Part shown: positions 3,080 through 23,367 of the stretch, in pieces | How positions within the stretch are numbered: position 1 is the first letter of the stretch | Layout: each line of letters opens with the position of its first letter | Assembly: GCA_002478265.1 (NCBI GenBank) | Contig: DLNC01000010.1 | Location: 7,986 to 71,985, forward strand | Direction of reading: 5' to 3' | Length of the DNA stretch: 64,000 bases | Origin: Syntrophaceae bacterium UBA7520 | GTDB lineage: Bacteria > Desulfobacterota > Syntrophia > Syntrophales > Smithellaceae | The notes under the pieces: model-generated | Database searches by the model: none | What the model saw: only the letters and a program-made list of their open reading frames with translations | Told to the model about the DNA's origin: nothing | Position numbers and translations under genes: made by a program

Positions 3080-4072
3080 TTAACCATTATTAGATTTTTC
3101 ACCGTTGAGCAGAGCCTTTATCTCTTTGAAGGAGAATTTGTTGTAAGGCATAAAAAGAATGCCCAGCACAACGACAATGGCGATGGAAAGAAAATGATAA
3201 ACGACGGCGAAAGAAAATGCTTCGGATTTAGCCATGCCGAAGATACTTAAGCCTAAAATGCAGGCAAAATGCCAGTTGCCGATATAACCGGGGGCGGTGG
3301 GAATGGCGATTCCCGCAATCAGAACAATCATGAGCACCACCGCGGCCAGGAAAGGCAGACTGAAATCAAAAGCCAAAAACAGCATGTAGATTGCCAGAAC
3401 ATCGACGAACCAGATTAGCGCCGAAAGGAAAAGTAGATACAAAAGCATTCTTATATCTGTGATGATTTTGAAGCCGTCAATAAAATGATGGATCAGTTCA
3501 TCAATTTTATGCGCCAGTTTTTCCGGCAATTTACTGAAAATTCTCCGGGCAACATTCGATGCGGTTTGTCGTTTCCAGATCAGAACAATAATAAAAATCA
3601 GCAACAAAAAAGCAATAATGAAAAACAAAATACTGGATTTTATCATCCAGTCAGGCAGGCGCATAAAGGTCAGAGAAATAACCATGATGGATATAACCGC
3701 CAGGCTGTCCAGTACTCTTTCCACAAAAATCGTGCCGAGAGCGGATGAAAATTTTATTTCACTTTTCTGCGCGATTAAATAGGGGCGGGCAAATTCTCCC
3801 AAGCGAGCGGGGATGGCGGCAATAGCCAGAAACCCCACAGAGGTAATGGCAAAAAGGGTAAACTGGTCAAGTTTCTGCAGGGGTTGCAAAATGACGCCCC
3901 AACGGTAGGAGCGTAAAAACTGCATTACCAGCACTATGGCAACAAAGCCGGCAACCGGCAGCAGTTTGATATTTTTCAGACTTTCGATAGTTTCATCAAA
4001 GTTTATCCCGCGGACGGATAAGTATACCAGGACAAGGCTAAGCAATATTCCCGCGATGATCTTTTTTTTCAT
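3080..4072 (-). CDS. Polytopic membrane protein, flippase-like / lysylphosphatidylglycerol-synthase TM-region family (UPF0104)
   Basis: 330 aa with about 8 hydrophobic helices. The overall pattern resembles the UPF0104 family. Assigned from memory of family features only. Confidence 0.55.
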   Translation of the reverse strand: MKKKIIAGILLSLVLVYLSVRGINFDETIESLKNIKLLPVAGFVAIVLVMQFLRSYRWGVILQPLQKLDQFTLFAITSVGFLAIAAIPARLGEFARPYLIAQKSEIKFSSALGTIFVERVLDSLAVISIMVISLTFMRLPDWMIKSSILFFIIAFLLLIFIIVLIWKRQTASNVARRIFSKLPEKLAHKIDELIHHFIDGFKIITDIRMLLYLLFLSALIWFVDVLAIYMLFLAFDFSLPFLAAVVLMIVLIAGIAIPTAPGYIGNWHFACILGLSIFGMAKSEAFSFAVVYHFLSIAIVVVLGILFMPYNKFSFKEIKALLNGEKSNNG

Positions 4073-4119: not shown

Positions 4120-4521
4120 TTATTGATTGGCCAGGTGATCAGCTATTTTATCATGGAGCAATTGCGAAGAAAGCTTGTTTCCTAGTAATCCCACCCGAAT
4201 CGAAACACTGGTCAGTTCTTTTGACTTATAAGTTACTTCAATTTTCACTTTTTCGCTTTTGATGATAGCGTTTATTCTTCCCCGGGCGATTTCGCGGACA
4301 GGTTGGACATCGATGCCCCTCATATCGGCGACGGTTTTTTCGCAGGCGGTCCAGACCTGATCGAAAGAAGCGGGATAGTCTGTTTTTAATTCACCGGAAA
4401 CGTAATAATATGTTCCAACGCCTGCCCCAACAGCGGTGCCCCCGACTACCAGAGCGGCGCATCCGCATAAAAGAAATAAGCTAAAAAGCAGCGATACGGC
4501 AGAAAACAAATTTTTCCTCAT
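4120..4521 (-). CDS. Lipoprotein, DUF3568-like
   Basis: Start moved to the internal ATG at 4521, preceded by GGAGGA at 6-nt spacing. Signal peptide with lipobox LLCGC. Confidence 0.55.
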   Translation of the reverse strand: MRKNLFSAVSLLFSLFLLCGCAALVVGGTAVGAGVGTYYYVSGELKTDYPASFDQVWTACEKTVADMRGIDVQPVREIARGRINAIIKSEKVKIEVTYKSKELTSVSIRVGLLGNKLSSQLLHDKIADHLANQ

Positions 4522-4660
4522 GTTTATTCCTCCGGTGAAGTTTGTTTTTTTAAACATATCATTGATGCAATTGCAATATTAAATATTTCAGTCCACTAAC
4601 TGCTGCTTTCGCGATATTGAAAAGATTATCACAGCGGCCTTGTTCGAAGAAAATATTATT

Positions 4661-7091: not shown

Positions 7092-7721
7092 TCAGCGTAA
7101 GAAAGGGTTATATTTTTTTTCATGGCCGATTGTCGAGGTAGGCATGCGGCCGTAATTATGGCCGGGCATGACTTTGGTGTCTTCCGGCAAAGTAAAAAGT
7201 TTTGTTTTGATGGCGTTGCACATAATCTCCCAGGATCCGCCCGGCAAATCAGTTCTGCCGATCGCTTCCACAAACAGCGTATCGCCGCTGAACACGAAGC
7301 CGGGAGTGTACAGGCAGATGCCGCCCGGAGAATGCCCTGGCGTATGAATGACTTTAAGCTCCACATTGCCCGTGGAAATGGTTTGCCCGTCTTTTACCAG
7401 GATATCCGCGGGGGGAGACTGCGCCGCGCCAAACATTCTCAGCATGGCGGCGGGTGTCGCTGTAAGCATTATCGCGTCAGCTTCATGCACGATGATTTTC
7501 GCGCCGGTAAGCTTTTTCATCAAGGCATTGCCGCCGATATGGTCAACGTGTCCGTGTGTGTTGACGATGTAATTAATGCGCAGTTTGTTTTGCTGTGCCA
7601 CATGGATGATGTCTTCAACATTATCCGCCGGGTCGATAACCAGAGCGTCGCCGGTGATTTTATCCCCCACCAGATAGGCGAAAACGGCCATGTGCCCTAC
7701 CTGCATTTGCTTAACGAACAT
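7092..7721 (-). CDS. MBL-fold metallo-hydrolase (glyoxalase II-like)
   Basis: HxHxDH motif ([11 protein letters not shown]) and typical beta-lactamase-fold spacing. Confidence 0.85.
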
Positions 7722-7797
7722 AAACTGTACCTCAAAAAAATATCTGGTTACCTAGCATTATTTGATTTTATTCGTCAATTTAAATTAGGCGGGAGGA

Positions 7798-9141
7798 TTA
7801 ATTACGCCGGAGCGCCGCGGCGAAAAAGCCGTCAGTATTATGGATATGCGGATAGGTGCGATAGAATCCGTCACCGTCAAAAAGGCTTTTATCGAGGCCA
7901 GCCGGTGGAGGGCAAAGAGAGAATTCGCTGTTTTGCGCCATGAATTCTTTAACGATATTTTCATTTTCCTGCGGCAAGAGCGAGCATGTGCAGTATATCA
8001 ATTTTCCGTTGTTTTTCACCGCTCGCGCCGCTTCAGCAAGAATTTTTTTTTGCCGCCGCACAGTTTTAGGAATATCTTTGGGCTGTAGGCGCCATTTTAT
8101 TTCCGGATTGCGGCGTAGCGTGCCTGTACCGGAACATGGCGCGTCAACAAGGACAAAATCAAATCTGCCGCTTAATTTATCTGGCAGGCCGTAGCTTAAA
8201 TCCATCTTATATGCCTCAGCACAGGTTACGCCCAACCGCAGAGCTTCCTTTTTTAATTCTTCAATCATCGCGGGATTCTTATCTATTGCCAGAATTCGCC
8301 CATGATTTTTCATCAGTGCCGCCAGATGCGCAGTCTTGCCGCCGCTTCCTGCGCAGACATCAAGGACATTGCTGTTTTCTTCCGGTACAACGAGATACGC
8401 GATGCATTGGGCGCCTTCATCCTGCAGGCGAAAAAAACCGGCGGAAAATGCTTCAGTTTTTACGGCAGCCTGGATGCCTTGATGTATGATGAGGCCGTCC
8501 GGCGAATGCCTGGTCGGTGCAAGATGAAAACCATCGGCGCTGAGCTTGGCGATCAATTCAGCGCGTGATATTTTCAGCGTATTAACCCGGAGAGTCACGG
8601 GTGGTAGCTCATTGTTCGAAGCGCATAAGGATTGCGTGTTTTCGGGACCAAAAATGTTCAGCCATTCATTTACCAACCAGGAGGGATGGGAATAATTTAC
8701 GGATATGTATTTTGCCATGCCATTTTCGGGAGCAGGAAAAGGAATATTATTCCCGCGCCGCAAATAATTACGCAGCAAGGCGTTGACTAAAGAGCTTTTC
8801 TGCGGAGAGATTAAATTGCTTATTTTTACCGCTTCGTTTACTACGGCAAAAGCGGGCAGGCGGTCGCTGCTTGTTAATTGAAAAAGAGAAATGCGCAGAA
8901 TATTTTTAACAGTTTCGTCAAGATTCTCGAATTCGCCGCGATAAAGAGCCGCAATAATCCAATCAAGCCGGCCGCGATTTCTCAAAACGCCGTAAACAAG
9001 GTAAGTAAGCAACTTTCCGTCCGCCGTACCCGACAGTTGATTGGCATCCAGGCAATCGTCAAGAAGAAGAGAGGCAAACGCGTCGCTGCGATTAACCCGC
9101 GTGAGAATAACCGTCGCCAGATGCCTGATGGATTTCTTCAT
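7798..9141 (-). CDS. rsmB: 16S rRNA (cytosine967-C5)-methyltransferase RsmB
   Basis: NusB-like N-terminal domain plus SAM methyltransferase (DVCAGSGGKT, DAPCSGTG, catalytic TCS). Confidence 0.85.
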   Translation of the reverse strand: MKKSIRHLATVILTRVNRSDAFASLLLDDCLDANQLSGTADGKLLTYLVYGVLRNRGRLDWIIAALYRGEFENLDETVKNILRISLFQLTSSDRLPAFAVVNEAVKISNLISPQKSSLVNALLRNYLRRGNNIPFPAPENGMAKYISVNYSHPSWLVNEWLNIFGPENTQSLCASNNELPPVTLRVNTLKISRAELIAKLSADGFHLAPTRHSPDGLIIHQGIQAAVKTEAFSAGFFRLQDEGAQCIAYLVVPEENSNVLDVCAGSGGKTAHLAALMKNHGRILAIDKNPAMIEELKKEALRLGVTCAEAYKMDLSYGLPDKLSGRFDFVLVDAPCSGTGTLRRNPEIKWRLQPKDIPKTVRRQKKILAEAARAVKNNGKLIYCTCSLLPQENENIVKEFMAQNSEFSLCPPPAGLDKSLFDGDGFYRTYPHIHNTDGFFAAALRRN

Positions 9142-9221: not shown

Positions 9222-9827
9222 TTAAGTATTCGTGGGAACCGCCGCCGGGCTCGTCAATTCAGAGCGCTTGCCTTTAACTTGCAGGTAAAAGTCGCGTATG
9301 GCGACCATGTCGCGTGCGATATCTCCGGTGGGGAATATAAGCGGCCCCGCGCCGCCGGTTTTGGTCGCGTAATCGATATAGCCAATTTGTATGGGAATGC
9401 CGGCGCCCGTGGCGATATGGTAAAAACCGGATTTCCAGTATTTTACTTTGTGACGGGTTCCTTCAGGTGCCAGGGCTAAAACAAACTCACGCCTTTTTTT
9501 GAATTCCTCGATCATTTTTTCAACGATATTGGAATGCGCGGATCGATCGGTGGCGATTCCTCCCAGCCATTCGATAACCGGCCCGAAGGGCCGGCGAAAC
9601 AATTCTTTCTTTGCCAGAAAACGGGCATCAAGTTTCAGAGCGAAAGCCAGCATTACTCCATAAAAAACATCCCAGTTGGAAGTGTGCGGCGCGACAATGA
9701 CCAGATATTTTGGCAAATTTGGCAGCGGGCCAATGGCTTTCCATCCGAGTATTTTCAATAAAGTAAGAGATAAACCGCGTAAAACAGATTTGATTACCGG
9801 CGTGGTGAAGATTGAATAACGCAGCAA
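9222..9827 (-). CDS. Lysophospholipid (1-acyl-sn-glycerol-3-phosphate) acyltransferase family protein
   Basis: HxxxxD acyltransferase motif (PHTSNWD). TTG start with GGAGG 5 nt upstream. Confidence 0.7.
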   Translation of the reverse strand: MLRYSIFTTPVIKSVLRGLSLTLLKILGWKAIGPLPNLPKYLVIVAPHTSNWDVFYGVMLAFALKLDARFLAKKELFRRPFGPVIEWLGGIATDRSAHSNIVEKMIEEFKKRREFVLALAPEGTRHKVKYWKSGFYHIATGAGIPIQIGYIDYATKTGGAGPLIFPTGDIARDMVAIRDFYLQVKGKRSELTSPAAVPTNT

Positions 9828-9944
9828 AGAAGCCTCCCCGTGAGAAATAGTGACAAATAAAAATTATTATATTTAAGATTAAAGAGCGGTGTCAAGAAAT
9901 TAAATATCGGCATGCCGCGCCGGATTGAATAATCAGGAATGATA

Positions 9945-10886
9945 TCATGAACCGAAAGCGGCATTGGTTTTAATTTGATAGCCGCGCAGGAAATCTTGCA
10001 CCGGCATCTTTTTTTTCCCGGCGAGCTGCACTTCCTTTAACAGGAGAAGACCATCGCCTGTGGCAACTTTGATTATGTCTTTGGCAACCTCAACGATTGT
10101 GCCGGGTGTTTTATTGGTTTCTTCCATCAATGGTTCCGCCACGTAAATTTTAATCATTTTCTCGTTTAAGAAGCTGTACGCGCCGGGCGCGGGGCTCAAG
10201 CCACGGATGAGATTGTAGATATTAACGGCGCTTTCGCGCCAGTTTATTTTCTCGGTTTCCTTGGTCAAACGCGGCGCAAAAGACACTGCCTCTTTATCCT
10301 GGGGACGAGGGTCAATGGCGCCGGCAATAAATTGGTCGATAGTCGAAAGAAGCAGCTGCGCCCCGAGCCTGGCCAGCCGGTCTTGCAGATGGCCGAAATT
10401 TTCCCCCGGAATGATGTCTGTTTCCTGCTGTGTCAGGATATCGCCGGAATCCATTCCTTCGTCCATCAGCATTATTGTTACGCCGGTTTTTGTTTCTCCT
10501 TTGATCAGGGTCCAGTTAATCGGCGCGGCGCCGCGGTATTTCGGTAGGAGCGAGGGATGGATGTTCAGACAACCGCGAGGGGGAATATCCAGGATTTTTT
10601 TGGGTAGGATTTGTCCAAACGCCGCGACCACAATCATCTCCGGGGATAAACTCTTAATAATTTCCACGCTTGTTTCTTCCCTGATATTCTCGGGTTGAAA
10701 AACGGGCAGCTCTAATTTTTCCGCGAGAATTTTGACCGCCGGGGCGGCGGCGATTTGTCCTCGGCCTTGGGGGCGGTCTGGCTGCGTGATGACGCCGGCA
10801 ATTTCATATCCTGCGACATGCAACATCTGGAGGGCCGGCAAGGAAAATGATGGTGTGCCCATGAAAACTATGCGTAGCGGATTCAT
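9945..10886 (-). CDS. fmt: Methionyl-tRNA formyltransferase
   Basis: Start set at MNPLRIVFMGTP (ATG 10886), with AGGAGG 7 nt upstream. Formyltransferase core with HPSLLPKYRG. Confidence 0.9.
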   Translation of the reverse strand: MNPLRIVFMGTPSFSLPALQMLHVAGYEIAGVITQPDRPQGRGQIAAAPAVKILAEKLELPVFQPENIREETSVEIIKSLSPEMIVVAAFGQILPKKILDIPPRGCLNIHPSLLPKYRGAAPINWTLIKGETKTGVTIMLMDEGMDSGDILTQQETDIIPGENFGHLQDRLARLGAQLLLSTIDQFIAGAIDPRPQDKEAVSFAPRLTKETEKINWRESAVNIYNLIRGLSPAPGAYSFLNEKMIKIYVAEPLMEETNKTPGTIVEVAKDIIKVATGDGLLLLKEVQLAGKKKMPVQDFLRGYQIKTNAAFGS

Positions 10887-19314: not shown

Positions 19315-19327
19315 AAAATCTTGATAA

Positions 19328-19642
19328 ATGTCACGCAATACGTTACAAAATAGCCGTGATAAAAAATTTGCCGACAAGCATACAAAAGATTTGTATGTTA
19401 AGGGGACATCGAAAAAATTTCAGCCGGATATTATAAAAAGAGCGTTGCGTCGCTTGGAATATATTGATTTGGCAACATGCCTTGAAGACTTAAAAGTACC
19501 GCCCAGCAACAAACTTCATGCTTTGAAAGGCGACAGAGAAGGGCAATGCGCTATATCAATAAATGATCAATGGAGAATATGCTTCAAGTATGTTCACGGC
19601 CATGCATATGACGTTGAGATAACCGATTATCATTTAGGGTAA
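19328..19642 (+). CDS. higB: Type II toxin HigB (RelE/ParE superfamily, 'plasmid maintenance system killer')
   Basis: The LHALKGDREGQCAISINDQWRICF pattern is typical of HigB. Immediately followed by an XRE antitoxin gene. Confidence 0.8.
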   Translation: MSRNTLQNSRDKKFADKHTKDLYVKGTSKKFQPDIIKRALRRLEYIDLATCLEDLKVPPSNKLHALKGDREGQCAISINDQWRICFKYVHGHAYDVEITDYHLG

Positions 19643-19646
19643 ACAA

Positions 19647-19961
19647 ATGAATATTAAGTATAATGGAAAAAGAGAAATAAAGCCTACCCATCCAGGAGAG
19701 ATGTTGAGAGAAGATTTTCTTCCTGATTACAATCTGAATGTGGCCTCGCTGGCGAAAGCGATTGGTGTTTCCCGCCAGACGGTTAATGAATTATTGCGCG
19801 AGACGCGCTCCCTCACACCGCTTATGGCGCTACGCCTGAGCAGATTATTCGGCAACACTTCTGAATTCTGGTTAAACGCGCAGTGTGCGTACGATCTTTG
19901 GGAAGTCCAGCAATCACACAAATCAGAGATTAAAAAAATACAGCCGCTGAAAGCTGCGTGA
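19647..19961 (+). CDS. higA: Type II antitoxin HigA (XRE-family HTH)
   Basis: HPGEMLREDFL...LAKAIGVSRQTVNELL...LSRLFGNTSEFWLN is the canonical HigA/VapI pattern. Confidence 0.85.
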   Translation: MNIKYNGKREIKPTHPGEMLREDFLPDYNLNVASLAKAIGVSRQTVNELLRETRSLTPLMALRLSRLFGNTSEFWLNAQCAYDLWEVQQSHKSEIKKIQPLKAA

Positions 19962-19962
19962 T

Positions 19963-20349
19963 TTAGTTCTCTTCAGGGCCTGATATTTTGCTTTTCGTCG
20001 AATATTTTCTGATAAATGCCTGACTGGCGTATTTGGTGAGCGTTCCCAGATGCTGCGGCGCGTGCGCGAGCCACGCCCCCAGAATAAAAACAAGGCACGA
20101 AATAACATAAATTGTCGGCCCGCCGATAACCGCGATAAGCGGTTTTTTATACCAAACGGCCAGCGCCCCCAGCGCGGCAACGGCCGGCCAGCCGATGACA
20201 TAGCTGAAAGCCATGAGAATCCAGCCCCAGATCATCCGCTTTGTCGGGCGCTGGCGCAGTTGGCTCAAATCCACGGGGCTTTCCATCATTTTACTGATGG
20301 ATTTTTTTTGAATAAGATAGTCGGCGATTTTTCTTCTGATTGTGTACAT
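19963..20349 (-). CDS. Small membrane protein, unknown function
   Basis: 128-aa ORF with 2-3 hydrophobic helices. I recognise no family. Divergent from the GT25-like gene. Confidence 0.4.
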   Translation of the reverse strand: MYTIRRKIADYLIQKKSISKMMESPVDLSQLRQRPTKRMIWGWILMAFSYVIGWPAVAALGALAVWYKKPLIAVIGGPTIYVISCLVFILGAWLAHAPQHLGTLTKYASQAFIRKYSTKSKISGPEEN

Positions 20350-20471
20350 ATTTGATTAATACACAAGCCTTCGTATTTGCGCAACCGCTTTTGTTTGGCT
20401 GAAGCTGATCCTTGACAGGGCGAAAGGCGCGTATTATAGCTTTCCAAATAAAAAAAGTTTAGCGAGCCAAG

Positions 20472-21188
20472 ATGACGACTGAAGCAAACCCGTGGGATTA
20501 TTTTGACCGCCTCTACTGCATTTCTCTGGAGGCGCGTGAAGACCGCCGCCGCTCAGCGCGCGAGGAATTTGTCAAAGTGGGCCTGGCCGACCATGTCGAG
20601 TTTGTGATTGTTAAACATTACCCTTATGACGTCATGCAGCAGATATACGAATCGCACATGCTTTGCCTCCAAAAAGGATTGGAGGCGGGCGCGCGCAACA
20701 TCGTTGTGTTTGAAGATGACGTTGGATTTGAAGGCTTTGACCCGCGACGGCTGCAAAGTTGTGTGGAATATTTAAAGCAGAATCCAAGCTGGAAAGTGTT
20801 TCTTTTTGGCGCCTTGATTCGCGCCAGCCGCAAAACAGAAAATCCCAACGTGCAGAAAGTTCGCTATCAGAGCTTGACCCATGCGTATGCTTTAAACAGG
20901 GATTACGCGCAGACGCTGGCGTACGTGCCCTGGCAGGGTATCGCCAACGATACGCTTTTCCGGCCGCTCAAGGATGGTGTTTACGCGGCCTATCCCATGT
21001 TCGCTTTTCAGAAGGATTTTTCCTCGGATAATCTGGAATATCTTCGCCTGGAGCGTTTCAGAAAATTATTGGGGGGGCTCAAGCGCATCCAGAAAGGCAT
21101 TGAATTCTACCGCCGCCACATAGTCAGCATCTACGCCGTGCAGACTGTTTTTATTATAATTGCGGTGATTTATTTGTTTTATTGGTGA
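20472..21188 (+). CDS. Glycosyltransferase family 25-like protein with C-terminal TM anchor
   Basis: N-terminal FDRLYCISLEAREDRR and acidic FEDDV motif resemble GT25 (LPS/LOS glycosyltransferases). Hydrophobic C-terminal tail. Confidence 0.5.
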   Translation: MTTEANPWDYFDRLYCISLEAREDRRRSAREEFVKVGLADHVEFVIVKHYPYDVMQQIYESHMLCLQKGLEAGARNIVVFEDDVGFEGFDPRRLQSCVEYLKQNPSWKVFLFGALIRASRKTENPNVQKVRYQSLTHAYALNRDYAQTLAYVPWQGIANDTLFRPLKDGVYAAYPMFAFQKDFSSDNLEYLRLERFRKLLGGLKRIQKGIEFYRRHIVSIYAVQTVFIIIAVIYLFYW

Positions 21189-21200
21189 CAAAAAATAGAT
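21005..21200 (+). repeat. Direct repeat copy A (intact 3' end of the GT25-like gene)
   Basis: Aligns by eye with 21890..22083. I count about 24 substitutions and two 1-nt indels over about 184 nt. Confidence 0.85.
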
Positions 21201-21222
21201 CAATTCTACGGTATCCTAAACT

Positions 21223-21588
21223 CTATCTGCTTTTATATTTCATTTTTAGACCATCTGCAACGTGTGCCAACTTTGCATCGAATGTCCAGAGCATAACGCC
21301 GGTTAATTTAGCAGATGCCATAAGTTGAGCGTCCACATAGCTGATGCCTTTCCCCATCAGTCGGTTATTTTCAATAAACGACAATACTTCTTCGTGCTTG
21401 GCCTCAATACTTTCTGGCAGCATTTTCAGAAAGGATAGGATGCGCGCCCGGTCTTTTAGATTGCCGCAAGCCAATTCTCCGAAGATGAAGGGGTGACACA
21501 GGACTTCTCCGTTATTGAGTAAATCCGCTAATTCATCATTTCCATTTCTCAGATGCGCTACCCAAACGGATGTATCAACAAGAACCAC
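21223..21588 (-). CDS. vapC: Type II toxin VapC (PIN-domain ribonuclease)
   Basis: MVLVDTSVW start with the conserved acidic residues of a PIN domain. 121 aa, 6 nt downstream of the antitoxin gene. Confidence 0.85.
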   Translation of the reverse strand: MVLVDTSVWVAHLRNGNDELADLLNNGEVLCHPFIFGELACGNLKDRARILSFLKMLPESIEAKHEEVLSFIENNRLMGKGISYVDAQLMASAKLTGVMLWTFDAKLAHVADGLKMKYKSR

Positions 21589-21594
21589 GGGCTT

Positions 21595-21786
21595 TCATGC
21601 TCCTCTTCTTCTGGGTATTTCCTTAAGCTGTTTCTGCGAGCCGCCGAGTTTAGCTAATCTACGGGCGCTTTCCATAGCAATAAGCGCTTCCAGCCCTCGT
21701 TTAACAAGTGCTGTTTTTTCTTTAATTCCGGTAATTTTGGAAGCTTTGTCCACCAGGTTGTCGTCAATATTCAATGTTGTTCTCAT
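21595..21786 (-). CDS. vapB: Type II antitoxin VapB (DUF2191/ribbon-helix-helix-like)
   Basis: MRTTLNIDDNLVDKA start typical of this antitoxin family. GAGG RBS. 63 aa. Confidence 0.7.
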   Translation of the reverse strand: MRTTLNIDDNLVDKASKITGIKEKTALVKRGLEALIAMESARRLAKLGGSQKQLKEIPRRRGA

Positions 21787-21799
21787 CTTTTTACCTCAT

Positions 21800-21836
21800 A
21801 TAATATGTTCATATTAGTATGCATATTACATGCATA
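21800..21836 (-). promoter_or_regulatory. Putative vapBC promoter/operator (AT-rich palindromes)
   Basis: Two ATGCAT palindromes (21819-21824, 21830-21835) spaced 11 nt apart, and CATAT-A-ATATG (about 21797-21807), directly upstream of the vapB RBS. Confidence 0.35.
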
Positions 21837-21889
21837 AAAGTCAAGGGTTATCAGGTATGTTTTAAAGCTTGCTGCATGATATTAATTCC

Positions 21890-22083
21890 TTTCCAGAAAG
21901 ATTTTCCACGGATAACTTGGAATATCTTCGCCTGGAGCGTTTTAGAAAATTATTGGGGGGCTCAAGCGCATCCAGAAGGGGAGCGAATTTTACCGCCGCC
22001 ATATGATTGGCATTTACGCTGTGCAGATTGTTTTCATTTTAATTGCGGTGATTTATTTGTTTTGTAGATGATAACAATTAATA
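21890..22083 (+). pseudogene. Decayed duplicate of the GT25-like gene 3' end (direct repeat copy B)
   Basis: About 85% identical by hand alignment to 21005..21200. It has 1-nt deletions (T-run near 21905, G-run 21955-21960) that break the frame. The 82-aa ORF 21819..22067 in the track is an artefact of this fragment. Confidence 0.8.
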
Positions 22084-22230
22084 TACCAACTTGGTTTTTC
22101 CCGATATTTTTGGATATTCTACTTCCTCCCAGAAAAAAAGCAAAAAGAAAAATGTCCTTTTAAAACAAGCAATAAGCGGAATCAACTACTTGGCATTTTC
22201 TGGTAATAAAGACAAAAAACCAAGTTGGTA
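22084..22230. repeat. 147-bp element bounded by 16-bp perfect inverted repeats (MITE-like or structured RNA)
   Basis: TACCAACTTGGTTTTT (22084-22099) is the exact reverse complement of AAAAACCAAGTTGGTA (22215-22230). The arms are 115 nt apart and there is no ORF inside. Confidence 0.6.
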
Positions 22231-22257
22231 ATTTGTGATAAAAATGTCCCCCAAAAT

Positions 22258-23367
22258 TTATTTTGCCAGCCAGCCCAGGCCCTTGGCATGCAGGCTCTGA
22301 ATATATAGCTTATCTTTGGTTTCCGTCACGCCTGTTGTTTCTGGATAAGTTCCCTTGGGATTCTGCAGATCGGCAACCACCTTGCCGTCTTCGGTAAAGG
22401 CAAAGACATGGCCATACGGTTTGGGAACGGGCCAGAGCGCGCGCGGCAGGCGCAGGCTTAGTTTACGCATGAAAGGTTTGGGCATCATTTTATCAATGGC
22501 CGGGTTGCGCGGTTTAACGAGGCCCACCCAGATTTTGCCATCCATGCCCCGCATCAGGTTATCGGGATAGCCGGGAAGGTTATCAAAAACTACTTTAGCC
22601 AGTTTGCTGTCGCTGGCGATATCCAGATCGCGCAGGTTGACGGAAATTTTCCAAATGCGGTATTTGCCGGTTTCGGCCACGAAAAGCCACTGTTCATCTT
22701 CGCTTAAGGCCACGCCGTTGGCAAAACTGAATCCCTTGGCCACCACGCGGGTGATTTTCCTGGCCGGATCGTATTCCAGAATGCGACCGGTTGAGGACTG
22801 TTCCATGATATCCAGAATGCTCGCGTTAAACGTGCCGCCCCAGTCTTTGGGAGCGAAACGGGTGGAGGCGTCGCTGAAATAAATTTTGCCGTTTTTGGCC
22901 ACCACCACCGCGTCGGCATAGCGGATCGGGTCGCCATAGACTTTATCGGTGAGAATTGTCACCTGTTTATCGCGGCTGATGGAAAGAAGTCCTTTCACGG
23001 CGTCGGCGGCAATCATGTAGCCGCGCGCGTCAAAAGCAAAACCCAAAACGCGCCCGCCCGTGTTGATGAAAACTTCCTGCTTGCTGCCGTCGGGATTCAT
23101 GCGCAGAATGTTGCCGCTCTCCACCGTAGTGTAAAGCTTGTTGTCTTTGCCGATGACGATATGCTCCGGGCCCGCTTCCGCGCCCAGGGCGATTATTTTC
23201 AAGTCGGCAAGTCTCGTGTTGACCTCATGGGGACTCACATAGCCCGGAGGCATTGGCGCATCCCAGGCCACCGGCTTAATCGGCACCGGCCACATGATTA
23301 AATAAGCAATCAATGCGCAAACAATGATGATAACGACACTGACAAAAATTAACAGAGCTTTTTTCAT
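22258..23367 (-). CDS. Strictosidine synthase / SMP-30 / gluconolactonase-like beta-propeller protein, N-terminally membrane-anchored
   Basis: N-terminal TM helix and repeated beta-propeller blades (FANGVALSEDEQWLFVAET, DGKIWVG) typical of the SGL/strictosidine synthase family. Confidence 0.7.
   Translation of the reverse strand: MKKALLIFVSVVIIIVCALIAYLIMWPVPIKPVAWDAPMPPGYVSPHEVNTRLADLKIIALGAEAGPEHIVIGKDNKLYTTVESGNILRMNPDGSKQEVFINTGGRVLGFAFDARGYMIAADAVKGLLSISRDKQVTILTDKVYGDPIRYADAVVVAKNGKIYFSDASTRFAPKDWGGTFNASILDIMEQSSTGRILEYDPARKITRVVAKGFSFANGVALSEDEQWLFVAETGKYRIWKISVNLRDLDIASDSKLAKVVFDNLPGYPDNLMRGMDGKIWVGLVKPRNPAIDKMMPKPFMRKLSLRLPRALWPVPKPYGHVFAFTEDGKVVADLQNPKGTYPETTGVTETKDKLYIQSLHAKGLGWLAK

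Follow-up and report, generated by a model that had tools for sequence, protein, structure and literature searches.

How could a toxin-antitoxin (TA) operon without mobility genes come to lie between two copies of the 3' end of an unrelated gene? This question is raised by a locus of Syntrophaceae bacterium UBA7520 (Smithellaceae; GenBank assembly GCA_002478265.1), in which a vapBC pair stands directly behind an intact GT25-like glycosyltransferase gene and in front of a second, orphan copy of that gene's 3' end. The window analysed here is a stretch of 64,000 nt from contig DLNC01000010.1 (positions 7,986 to 71,985 of the forward strand), and coordinates refer to it unless a compared locus is named. 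A preliminary description of this sequence had taken the arrangement as an insertion that brought a replacement end for the gene it landed in and left the original end stranded. Our analysis leans towards the view that the locus is the fossil of one recombination, which would have joined two alleles of a variable site behind the GT25 stop codon and been followed by stable inheritance, frameshifts in the second copy and occasional gene conversion from the first copy to the second.

Structure of the locus

The GT25-like gene (20472-21188, plus strand) is intact in the open reading frame (ORF) list and encodes 238 amino acids, with a match to Pfam PF01755 above the curated cut-off (E = 4e-6); it is full length by comparison with 488 homologues, mostly of 237-250 amino acids. 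Its codons 177-238 and stop codon form the working end, copy A (21000-21197, plus strand), while copy B (21886-22080, plus strand) is an orphan, out-of-frame version of the same end with its own TGA followed by TAA. In a local alignment the two copies share 168 identities over 198 columns (85%), and differ by 27 substitutions and three 1-nt gaps, each of them a base absent from copy B: G21003, a single T in the run of Ts near 21018, and a single G in the G7 run (21070-21076). These deletions break the reading frame of copy B. The preliminary description had recognised both the lost frame and the recurrence of the gene end beyond vapC-vapB, with coordinates within 5 nt of the exact alignment; its count of about 24 substitutions is exact for the coding part but low for the full alignment, and its 1-nt deletions are real but number three rather than two. 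The homology ends at the GT25 stop codon or a few bases from there, and the match of 6 of the 9 bases past the stop is not significant.

The alignment score of 240, against 18.8 ± 2.6 for shuffled sequences (maximum 31), leaves no doubt about the significance of the repeat, which was also recovered, as two ungapped pieces, by a separate repeat search and is the sole repeat at E ≤ 1e-10 in a self-BLAST of the whole window. The sequence derives from a metagenome assembly and repeats are prone to misassembly, yet the chance that an artefact or accidental similarity explains the repeat is negligible. The arrangement of copy A, vapBC and copy B was found base for base in independent JGI, ENA and Logan assemblies, was identical in assemblies from at least five runs or sources, and recurs in a 93%-identical sister lineage; because identical copies recur in independent assemblies, the structure is not an assembly artefact. 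Single contigs also cross the entire arrangement, at 116x, and the alignment score lies far above that of every shuffle.

The 688 bp between the copies (21198-21885) contain only a promoter, vapB and vapC, have a GC content of 0.416 compared with 0.473 for the window, and end at 21885 in the junction with copy B. No mobility genes are present, in agreement with the first description of the cargo as a TA pair without an integrase, and neither an integron integrase nor an attI site was found in the cargo or at the GT25 site, the regions covered by that search. The vapC gene (21223-21588, minus strand) begins with GTG and encodes a PIN-domain protein of 121 amino acids (PF01850, E = 2.6e-9, model positions 1-119 of 120) whose translation retains the acidic residues of the PIN active site, D5, E38, D86 and D104. 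The vapB gene (21595-21786, minus strand; 63 amino acids; PF09957, E = 6.8e-16) lies 6 nt upstream of vapC in the same operon, which has its own promoter and operator. By domain content and operon organisation, the pair is predicted to be a type II TA system, VapBC.

The promoter and operator, together with the left end of the cargo, occupy 21787-21885 (minus strand), a block that is conserved across the vapBC family. A promoter scan identified a predicted sigma-70-like promoter in this block (-35 TTGACT at 21844-21839, -10 CATACT at 21821-21816), and two ATGCAT hexamers in the operator region (21819-21824 and 21830-21835) are likewise conserved in the family. At the opposite end, a spacer of 34 nt (21189-21222, minus strand) extends from the GT25 stop to the vapC stop. 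Comparison with relatives by eye hints that this spacer may be the degenerate remnant of a cassette-end element (...TTGATCTATTTTTTG/TCA); its last G adjoins the complement of the GT25 stop codon (G/TCA).

Allelic divergence between the two copies

If copy B were a decayed duplicate, some 60-70% of the differences between the copies would be expected to change amino acids, with an even spread over codon positions. The 24 coding substitutions instead fall 6, 3 and 15 on the first, second and third positions, and the ratio of nonsynonymous to synonymous substitution rates (dN/dS) between the copies is 0.13, compared with 0.14 among working GT25 orthologues. Substitution simulations over transition/transversion ratios of 1 to 8 gave a good fit to purifying selection on both copies (P 0.73-0.94) and disfavoured copies that were identical at their origin, with copy B evolving neutrally thereafter (P 0.004-0.04).

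The divergence is unevenly distributed, such that the two copies form an allelic mosaic. In the left half of the alignment (21000-21092), copies A and B differ by 6.7%, versus at least 16% to any relative, with 99% of bootstraps grouping them as sisters. Across the right half (21093-21185) the two copies are separated by 19.4%, copy A differs from species-level relatives by 13-15% and copy B by 16-19%, and the sister grouping appears in at most 3.4% of bootstraps. The density of differences rises sharply between 21060 and 21095, around the G7 run; from the last left-half difference (21059) to the first in the right half (21095), the copies differ only by the 1-nt deletion in that run. A near-identical origin of the two copies, which site patterns among four sequences had suggested, was revised once gene conversion in copy B of the sister lineage was recognised and the halves were analysed separately.

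The purifying-selection pattern and the non-sister status in the right half imply that at least the right halves of copies A and B are two alleles, which would have diverged in separate genomes, each still coding for a working protein. Most of the differences between the copies would accordingly be allelic, and clear decay is limited to the three frameshifts in copy B plus an in-frame TAG in the copy B of the sister lineage. The description of copy B as decaying is therefore apt for its frameshifts and for a minority of the substitutions, but not for the bulk of them, given their dN/dS. The same pattern suits the earlier proposal of an incoming replacement end, for which the right half of copy A, as a different allele diverged under purifying selection, would be the candidate.

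The left halves are also the strongest argument for the main competing explanation, in which the copies arose in situ and were identical at first, by long target duplication as for restriction-modification (R-M) systems or by tandem duplication (PMC3457768), and a later allelic recombination replaced one right half and its neighbouring sequence. The sister status of the left halves at 6.7% would be expected in such a history; allelic replacement inside GT25 demonstrably occurs, and R-M systems are known to insert with target duplications of 46-423 bp without mobility genes (PMC2853133). We nevertheless regard this history as unlikely. It needs at least two events where one suffices, and its replacement tract must end at the stop codon or inside homologous vapBC cargo. 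Moreover, five of the six left-half differences are synonymous, which is unexpected if copy B has been neutral since an identical origin.

Related loci and the variable site behind the GT25 stop codon

Relatives were drawn from genome and metagenome scans with GT25, and are given L-numbers where they need to be distinguished. The window lineage (L014-L019), a Smithellaceae/Syntrophales bacterium, occurs in hydrocarbon and digester metagenomes. The sister lineage (L020-L024, including a Smithellaceae metagenome-assembled genome) is about 93% identical over the region and has the same vapBC, the same junctions, the second copy and the same cargo size. In contrast to these two lineages, about 30 more distant relatives keep the flanking genes with a single GT25 3' end and no vapBC. 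The empty site implied by an insertion is thus present in these relatives, and none of them has the duplication without vapBC: among the loci compared, a second GT25 end occurs only alongside vapBC, in the window and sister lineages. These distributions point to an event seen once and common to two recombining lineages. A history of tandem GT25 paralogues followed by deletion was rejected, as no relative has two GT25 copies.

The relatives with a single GT25 end have different cargo directly after the GT25 stop, all of it on the minus strand and including genes for DUF6680, DUF6429, DUF4124 and TOBE proteins and unknown ORFs, and the distant relative L037 has almost nothing there (about 80 nt). 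Given this differing cargo behind the same stop codon, the site is a variable hotspot. Transposases occur at the site in two relatives, with genes downstream of GT25 in L005 (1446-2630) and L011 (2449-2835); no integrase was found at the GT25 site in any relative examined. The conserved right border of the variable site is a strictosidine-synthase-like (SGL) gene (22258-23367, minus strand), assigned by Pfam and by synteny in relatives. One relative, L001, carries two paralogues of this gene (7408-8514 and 9311-10405).

The two copies of the GT25 end correspond to different states of this hotspot. Copy B and the adjoining 22081-22234 are colinear with the L002 group, which lacks vapBC, over its GT25 end and the sequence that follows (L002 6535-6877 corresponds to 21891-22234), and this colinearity implies that copy B is the native end belonging to the right-hand flank, as the preliminary description had supposed of its stranded original end. 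Contiguous with copy B, as in the L002-group relatives, is a native inverted-repeat element (22070-22245, no strand assigned) with perfect 16-nt inverted repeats at 22084-22099 and 22215-22230. This element is AT-rich (GC 0.32), lies directly after the GT25 stop of copy B and is conserved in the L002 group; in one metagenome contig, 76 nt of it (22111-22186) are missing. Copy A, for its part, meets the cargo exactly at the stop codon (G/TCA), and other cargo joins likewise in L001, L004, L030 and L033. By this comparison, copy A with vapBC would represent the standard junction of the hotspot, a cassette behind the stop codon, and copy B with the inverted-repeat element an alternative allele.

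A restored gene end with a displaced partial copy beyond the cargo is also the classic footprint of integrative islands at the ends of tRNA and protein genes, and TA pairs tend to outlast island decay. The locus might then be what remains of a larger site-specific island that brought a replacement end and lost its integrase and other cargo, leaving the addictive vapBC. We consider this origin improbable. The cargo consists of exactly a promoter, vapB and vapC; its margins measure about 35-45 nt, scar sequence is absent, and its size is the same in the sister lineage. No relative has an integrase at the site, the repeat (85% identical and mosaic) contains no identical att core, and the vapB-side junction is illegitimate-looking, with no features of a recombinase site. 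The island-type integration put forward in the preliminary description is for these reasons not supported, and the only other vapBC context with long flanking repeats (L046, below) has a different geometry.

Origin of the arrangement

Under the favoured reading, of one recombination between two alleles, the donor allele would have come from another strain of the same group with vapBC directly behind its own GT25 stop, the usual cargo position, while the recipient allele would have consisted of GT25 followed by the inverted-repeat element. The incoming segment, comprising a GT25 3' end, vapC, vapB and their promoter, would have recombined through the GT25 3' end, the sole homology. This could have taken place with a linear fragment, by one homologous and one illegitimate junction (homology-facilitated illegitimate recombination), or equivalently with a circularised fragment, by a single Campbell-type crossover. 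Either route would yield the order GT25 5' part, copy A, vapBC, copy B and native downstream sequence, with one non-homologous junction at 21885/21886; copy A would keep GT25 intact, and copy B would be the displaced native end. We infer both the route and the direction of transfer.

Two lineages would later have received the resulting structure, either by inheritance or through homologous recombination in the flanks, with copy B gaining its three frameshifts and the copies exchanging sequence by gene conversion. Addiction modules select post-segregationally against their own loss, and by analogy vapBC may have had a stabilising role, disfavouring its loss by deletion between copies A and B.

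Several observations weigh against this history. The donor-type allele, GT25 followed by vapBC without a duplication, was not found among about 35 related loci and eight related VapC contexts. The left halves are far more alike than the right halves, so that a simple model of donor and recipient needs an added assumption: either the two would have been closely related, with alleles that differ only past about 21093, or gene conversion would have acted on the left half later, a process seen as A-to-B conversion in the sister lineage. In addition, the statistics are based on 24 substitutions in about 190 nt, and microhomology at the illegitimate junction is assessable only with the donor sequence.

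Later history and exchange between lineages

In the sister lineage, the left part of copy B (L020B) is B-like and has the shared deletions, whereas its right part is 91-92% identical to copy A of the window. This mosaic indicates that the sister lineage probably underwent gene conversion from A to B, and that an allele from outside took the place of part of its own copy A. Along 5 kb, the window and L020 diverge very unevenly: by 0-1% across a second TA pair, higBA, and its surroundings, by 20-29% over the GT25 promoter and 5' third, and then by about 3%. The divergence rises to 13% in copy A, falls to about 2% in vapBC, and is 8-10% across copy B plus the inverted-repeat element and about 5% in the gene beyond. 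Such mosaic divergence implies that homologous exchange among these lineages is frequent.

Within 20400-20700, the window diverges from L020 by 15-29% over the GT25 promoter and 5' third (dS 0.77), compared with 0-1% in the 1.2 kb upstream, a pattern that points to a probable allelic replacement inside a surface-glycosyltransferase gene. In the same comparison, vapB has a dN/dS of 0.10, and vapC (21223-21588 against L020 6752-7117) shows five nonsynonymous and no synonymous differences, where the dS of neighbouring genes is 0.1-0.2. The vapC pattern may reflect either recent sharing of the cassette between lineages or relaxed or positive selection on the toxin.

It had also been suggested that the direct repeats could allow precise excision, which would show as circles or deletion variants. 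No form with a deletion between copies A and B was seen in contigs from four metagenomes, the only material examined, in which rare excision could escape notice. One low-depth joint in run X2, of the type that goes back 887 positions, is explained by a mosaic copy B like that of L020 and is not a circle.

The second TA pair, higB (19328-19642) and higA (19647-19961), is an insertion/deletion polymorphism of the region 19315-19999 (GC 0.418). It is absent in L001, L002, L003, L010 and L011, where 19314 joins about 19992-20000 directly; the sister lineage has it, as do L004, L030 and L034, which are more distantly related. A flanking repeat was looked for at the higBA region and none was found.

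The vapBC family and a conserved cassette-end element

VapC has more than 4000 homologues, the best of which outside its own cluster are about 80% identical and mostly from Syntrophales. Eight other genomic contexts of related VapC were compared with the window, giving nine distinct contexts in all. In all eight, homology to the window cassette starts just upstream of the -35 box, and in most it extends beyond the stop of vapC and takes in a conserved element, about 55 nt long (TGATAACAAAATCAAT..CCGATCGCT.CGCTCCGGCTGATTTTTTCG/TT). After the vapC stop this element takes the form TGATAAC...TTTTCG/TTATCA with AAC/GTT inverted ends, and the cassette homology starts exactly at TTATCA.

Long flanking repeats occur in two of the nine contexts, the window type and L046; the other seven have none. 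In L046, vapBC is bracketed by a direct repeat of 178 nt with 98% identity (3281-3458 and 4419-4596), which is the 5' part of a gene for a 98-amino-acid membrane protein (gene X); gene Y, the partner of X, is truncated five codons in, and the second repeat copy is followed by 47 nt of the ancestral locus in inverted orientation. This locus was considered as a recurrence of the same mechanism and set aside: comparison with relatives of the neighbouring gene reveals a complex rearrangement, in which the orientation relative to vapBC differs. A viral-contig scan with VapC returned one irrelevant weak match. The preliminary description had raised the possibility of a self-mobile gene-end replacement cassette and of further vapBC copies with the same flanks; with the event seen once and no long repeat in seven of the eight other contexts, neither is borne out, and vapBC shows no apparent means of moving itself.

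The element of about 55 nt is not particular to vapBC, and was found 3' of the stop codons of unrelated small Syntrophales genes, vapC among them (TAACAAAATCAAT..CCGATCGCT.CGCTCCGGCTGATTTTTTCGTT). Copies lie at 2181-2235 and 2864-2918 in L074, 2860-2917 in L094, 4360-4431 in L054 and 4360-4429 in L046, and on the minus strand at 3323-3378 in L025, 6715-6755 in L001 and 1734-1778 in L030. The last three are behind or within unrelated cargo at the GT25 site: the L001 copy ends exactly at the GT25 stop (E = 1e-6), the L030 copy two bases short of it, and the L025 copy is inside the cargo (E = 6e-10). By eye, the element is also present in L004, L010 and L033. In the window, nhmmer did not detect it, and the corresponding piece, abutting the stop codon, is degenerate.

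Several traits of the element resemble attC sites, namely the AAC/GTT inverted ends, a bulged base and the overlap with the stop codon. RNAalifold gave no consensus structure for the element; its single-strand folds had z values of about 0 to -4.8, with about half of them forming a terminal stem, and Rfam had no match in the window region or in three element-bearing loci (L074, L025 and L092). We treat the attC-like character as a lead only.

An integron-type origin would cast vapBC as a cassette with an attC-like 3' element, inserted at a secondary site by IntI acting in trans, with the duplication resulting from aberrant replicative resolution. It would account for the conserved element behind the vapC stop in relatives, for the same element at the GT25 stop in L001 and L030 and inside the L025 cargo, and for the window cargo, which on the minus strand begins with TT and ends with G. 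Set against these likenesses are the degeneracy of the window element, the lack of a consensus structure and the weak folds, together with the absence of any integrase seen near the element copies; a 195-bp duplication, furthermore, is not a product of integron insertion. This origin is highly improbable.

A broader proposal is that the GT25 stop codon serves as a docking point for small gene cassettes (vapBC and unknown genes) in Smithellaceae and Syntrophales, marked by the AAC...GTT element and with the cassettes moved in trans, no recombinase being encoded nearby. We advance this only tentatively, as a possibility that is on balance doubtful. If it is true, the duplication of the GT25 end preserves two alternative alleles of a cassette site in cis, and homology-anchored recombination could also carry cassettes along with the host gene's end.

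Comparison with known systems

R-M gene complexes provide a close parallel, as they can insert with long target duplications of 46-423 bp (Nobusato et al. 2000; Furuta, Abe & Kobayashi 2010, PMC2853133). Such insertions are recognised by a lack of mobility genes and by flanking direct repeats of more than 30 bp, both of which align to a single position in a genome with the empty site, and their mechanism is itself unknown (PMC2853133). The present locus is similar in having an addiction-type pair without integrase or transposase between long direct repeats that match single-copy sequence in relatives, and some of the R-M repeats overlap the 3' end of a neighbouring gene, as here. It differs in its cargo, a type II TA pair, and in that its repeats are not simple duplicates of the recipient target: the right halves are distinct alleles, although the left halves would be compatible with duplication.

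A chromosomal TA pair between long direct repeats and adjoining a host gene is also known from Microcystis aeruginosa PCC 7806, where a ParE/ParD-like module lies between a pair of 152-bp direct repeats (Klemencic et al. 2021, PMC7935541). In that case, the repeats are identical and intergenic, contain inverted repeats, and are neither a duplicated gene end nor allelic. The locus further resembles the TA cassettes of chromosomal integrons and of clusters of attC sites lacking integron-integrases (CALIN), which are likewise small, promoter-bearing pairs, and members of its family have a conserved 3' element, about 55 nt long and imperfectly palindromic, which has AAC...GTT ends, overlaps the stop codon and is common to different cargo at one site. 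Unlike such cassettes, it has no visible integrase or attI, the fold support for attC is weak and the window copy of the element is degenerate.

Islands and prophages in the 3' ends of tRNA or protein genes commonly bring a replacement end, for example in the vap regions of Dichelobacter nodosus, where the vap genes were named. As in these islands, the target here is kept intact by an incoming 3' end and the old end remains beyond the cargo as a partial direct repeat; in contrast to them, there is no integrase and no identical core, the cargo is only 688 bp and one junction is illegitimate-looking. Displacement of effector/immunity modules of the type VI secretion system (T6SS) by recombination anchored in a conserved upstream coding region was reportedly described by Kirchberger et al. 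in 2017, and toxin-tip displacement at contact-dependent growth inhibition (CDI) and Rhs loci leaves orphan fragments. The likeness lies in the entry of a new module through conserved gene-end homology, with the old end pushed downstream as an orphan. The difference is that those loci swap a functional toxin tip and immunity gene, whereas here the host is an unrelated glycosyltransferase gene and the module an independent TA operon on the opposite strand.

The footprint thus combines two known things, the insertion of an addiction module without mobility genes between long repeats and a replacement end with the old end stranded. It does not qualify as an island because it has no integrase and no core site, nor strictly as a long target duplication because the right halves differ as alleles. 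The locus is informative in that both lineages of the event are preserved, and provides a clean, datable case of a TA pair without mobility genes that would have entered the chromosome on a conserved host-gene end, with the displaced end still present. It extends the long-flanking-duplication footprint of R-M systems to a TA system, and illustrates how codon-position and mosaic tests can distinguish genuine duplication of a target from two alleles in tandem. The comparison also draws attention to a glycosyltransferase stop codon as a variable site, and to a conserved cassette-end element, in syntrophs from digesters and from communities that degrade hydrocarbons; this hotspot and its element may be the more open lead.

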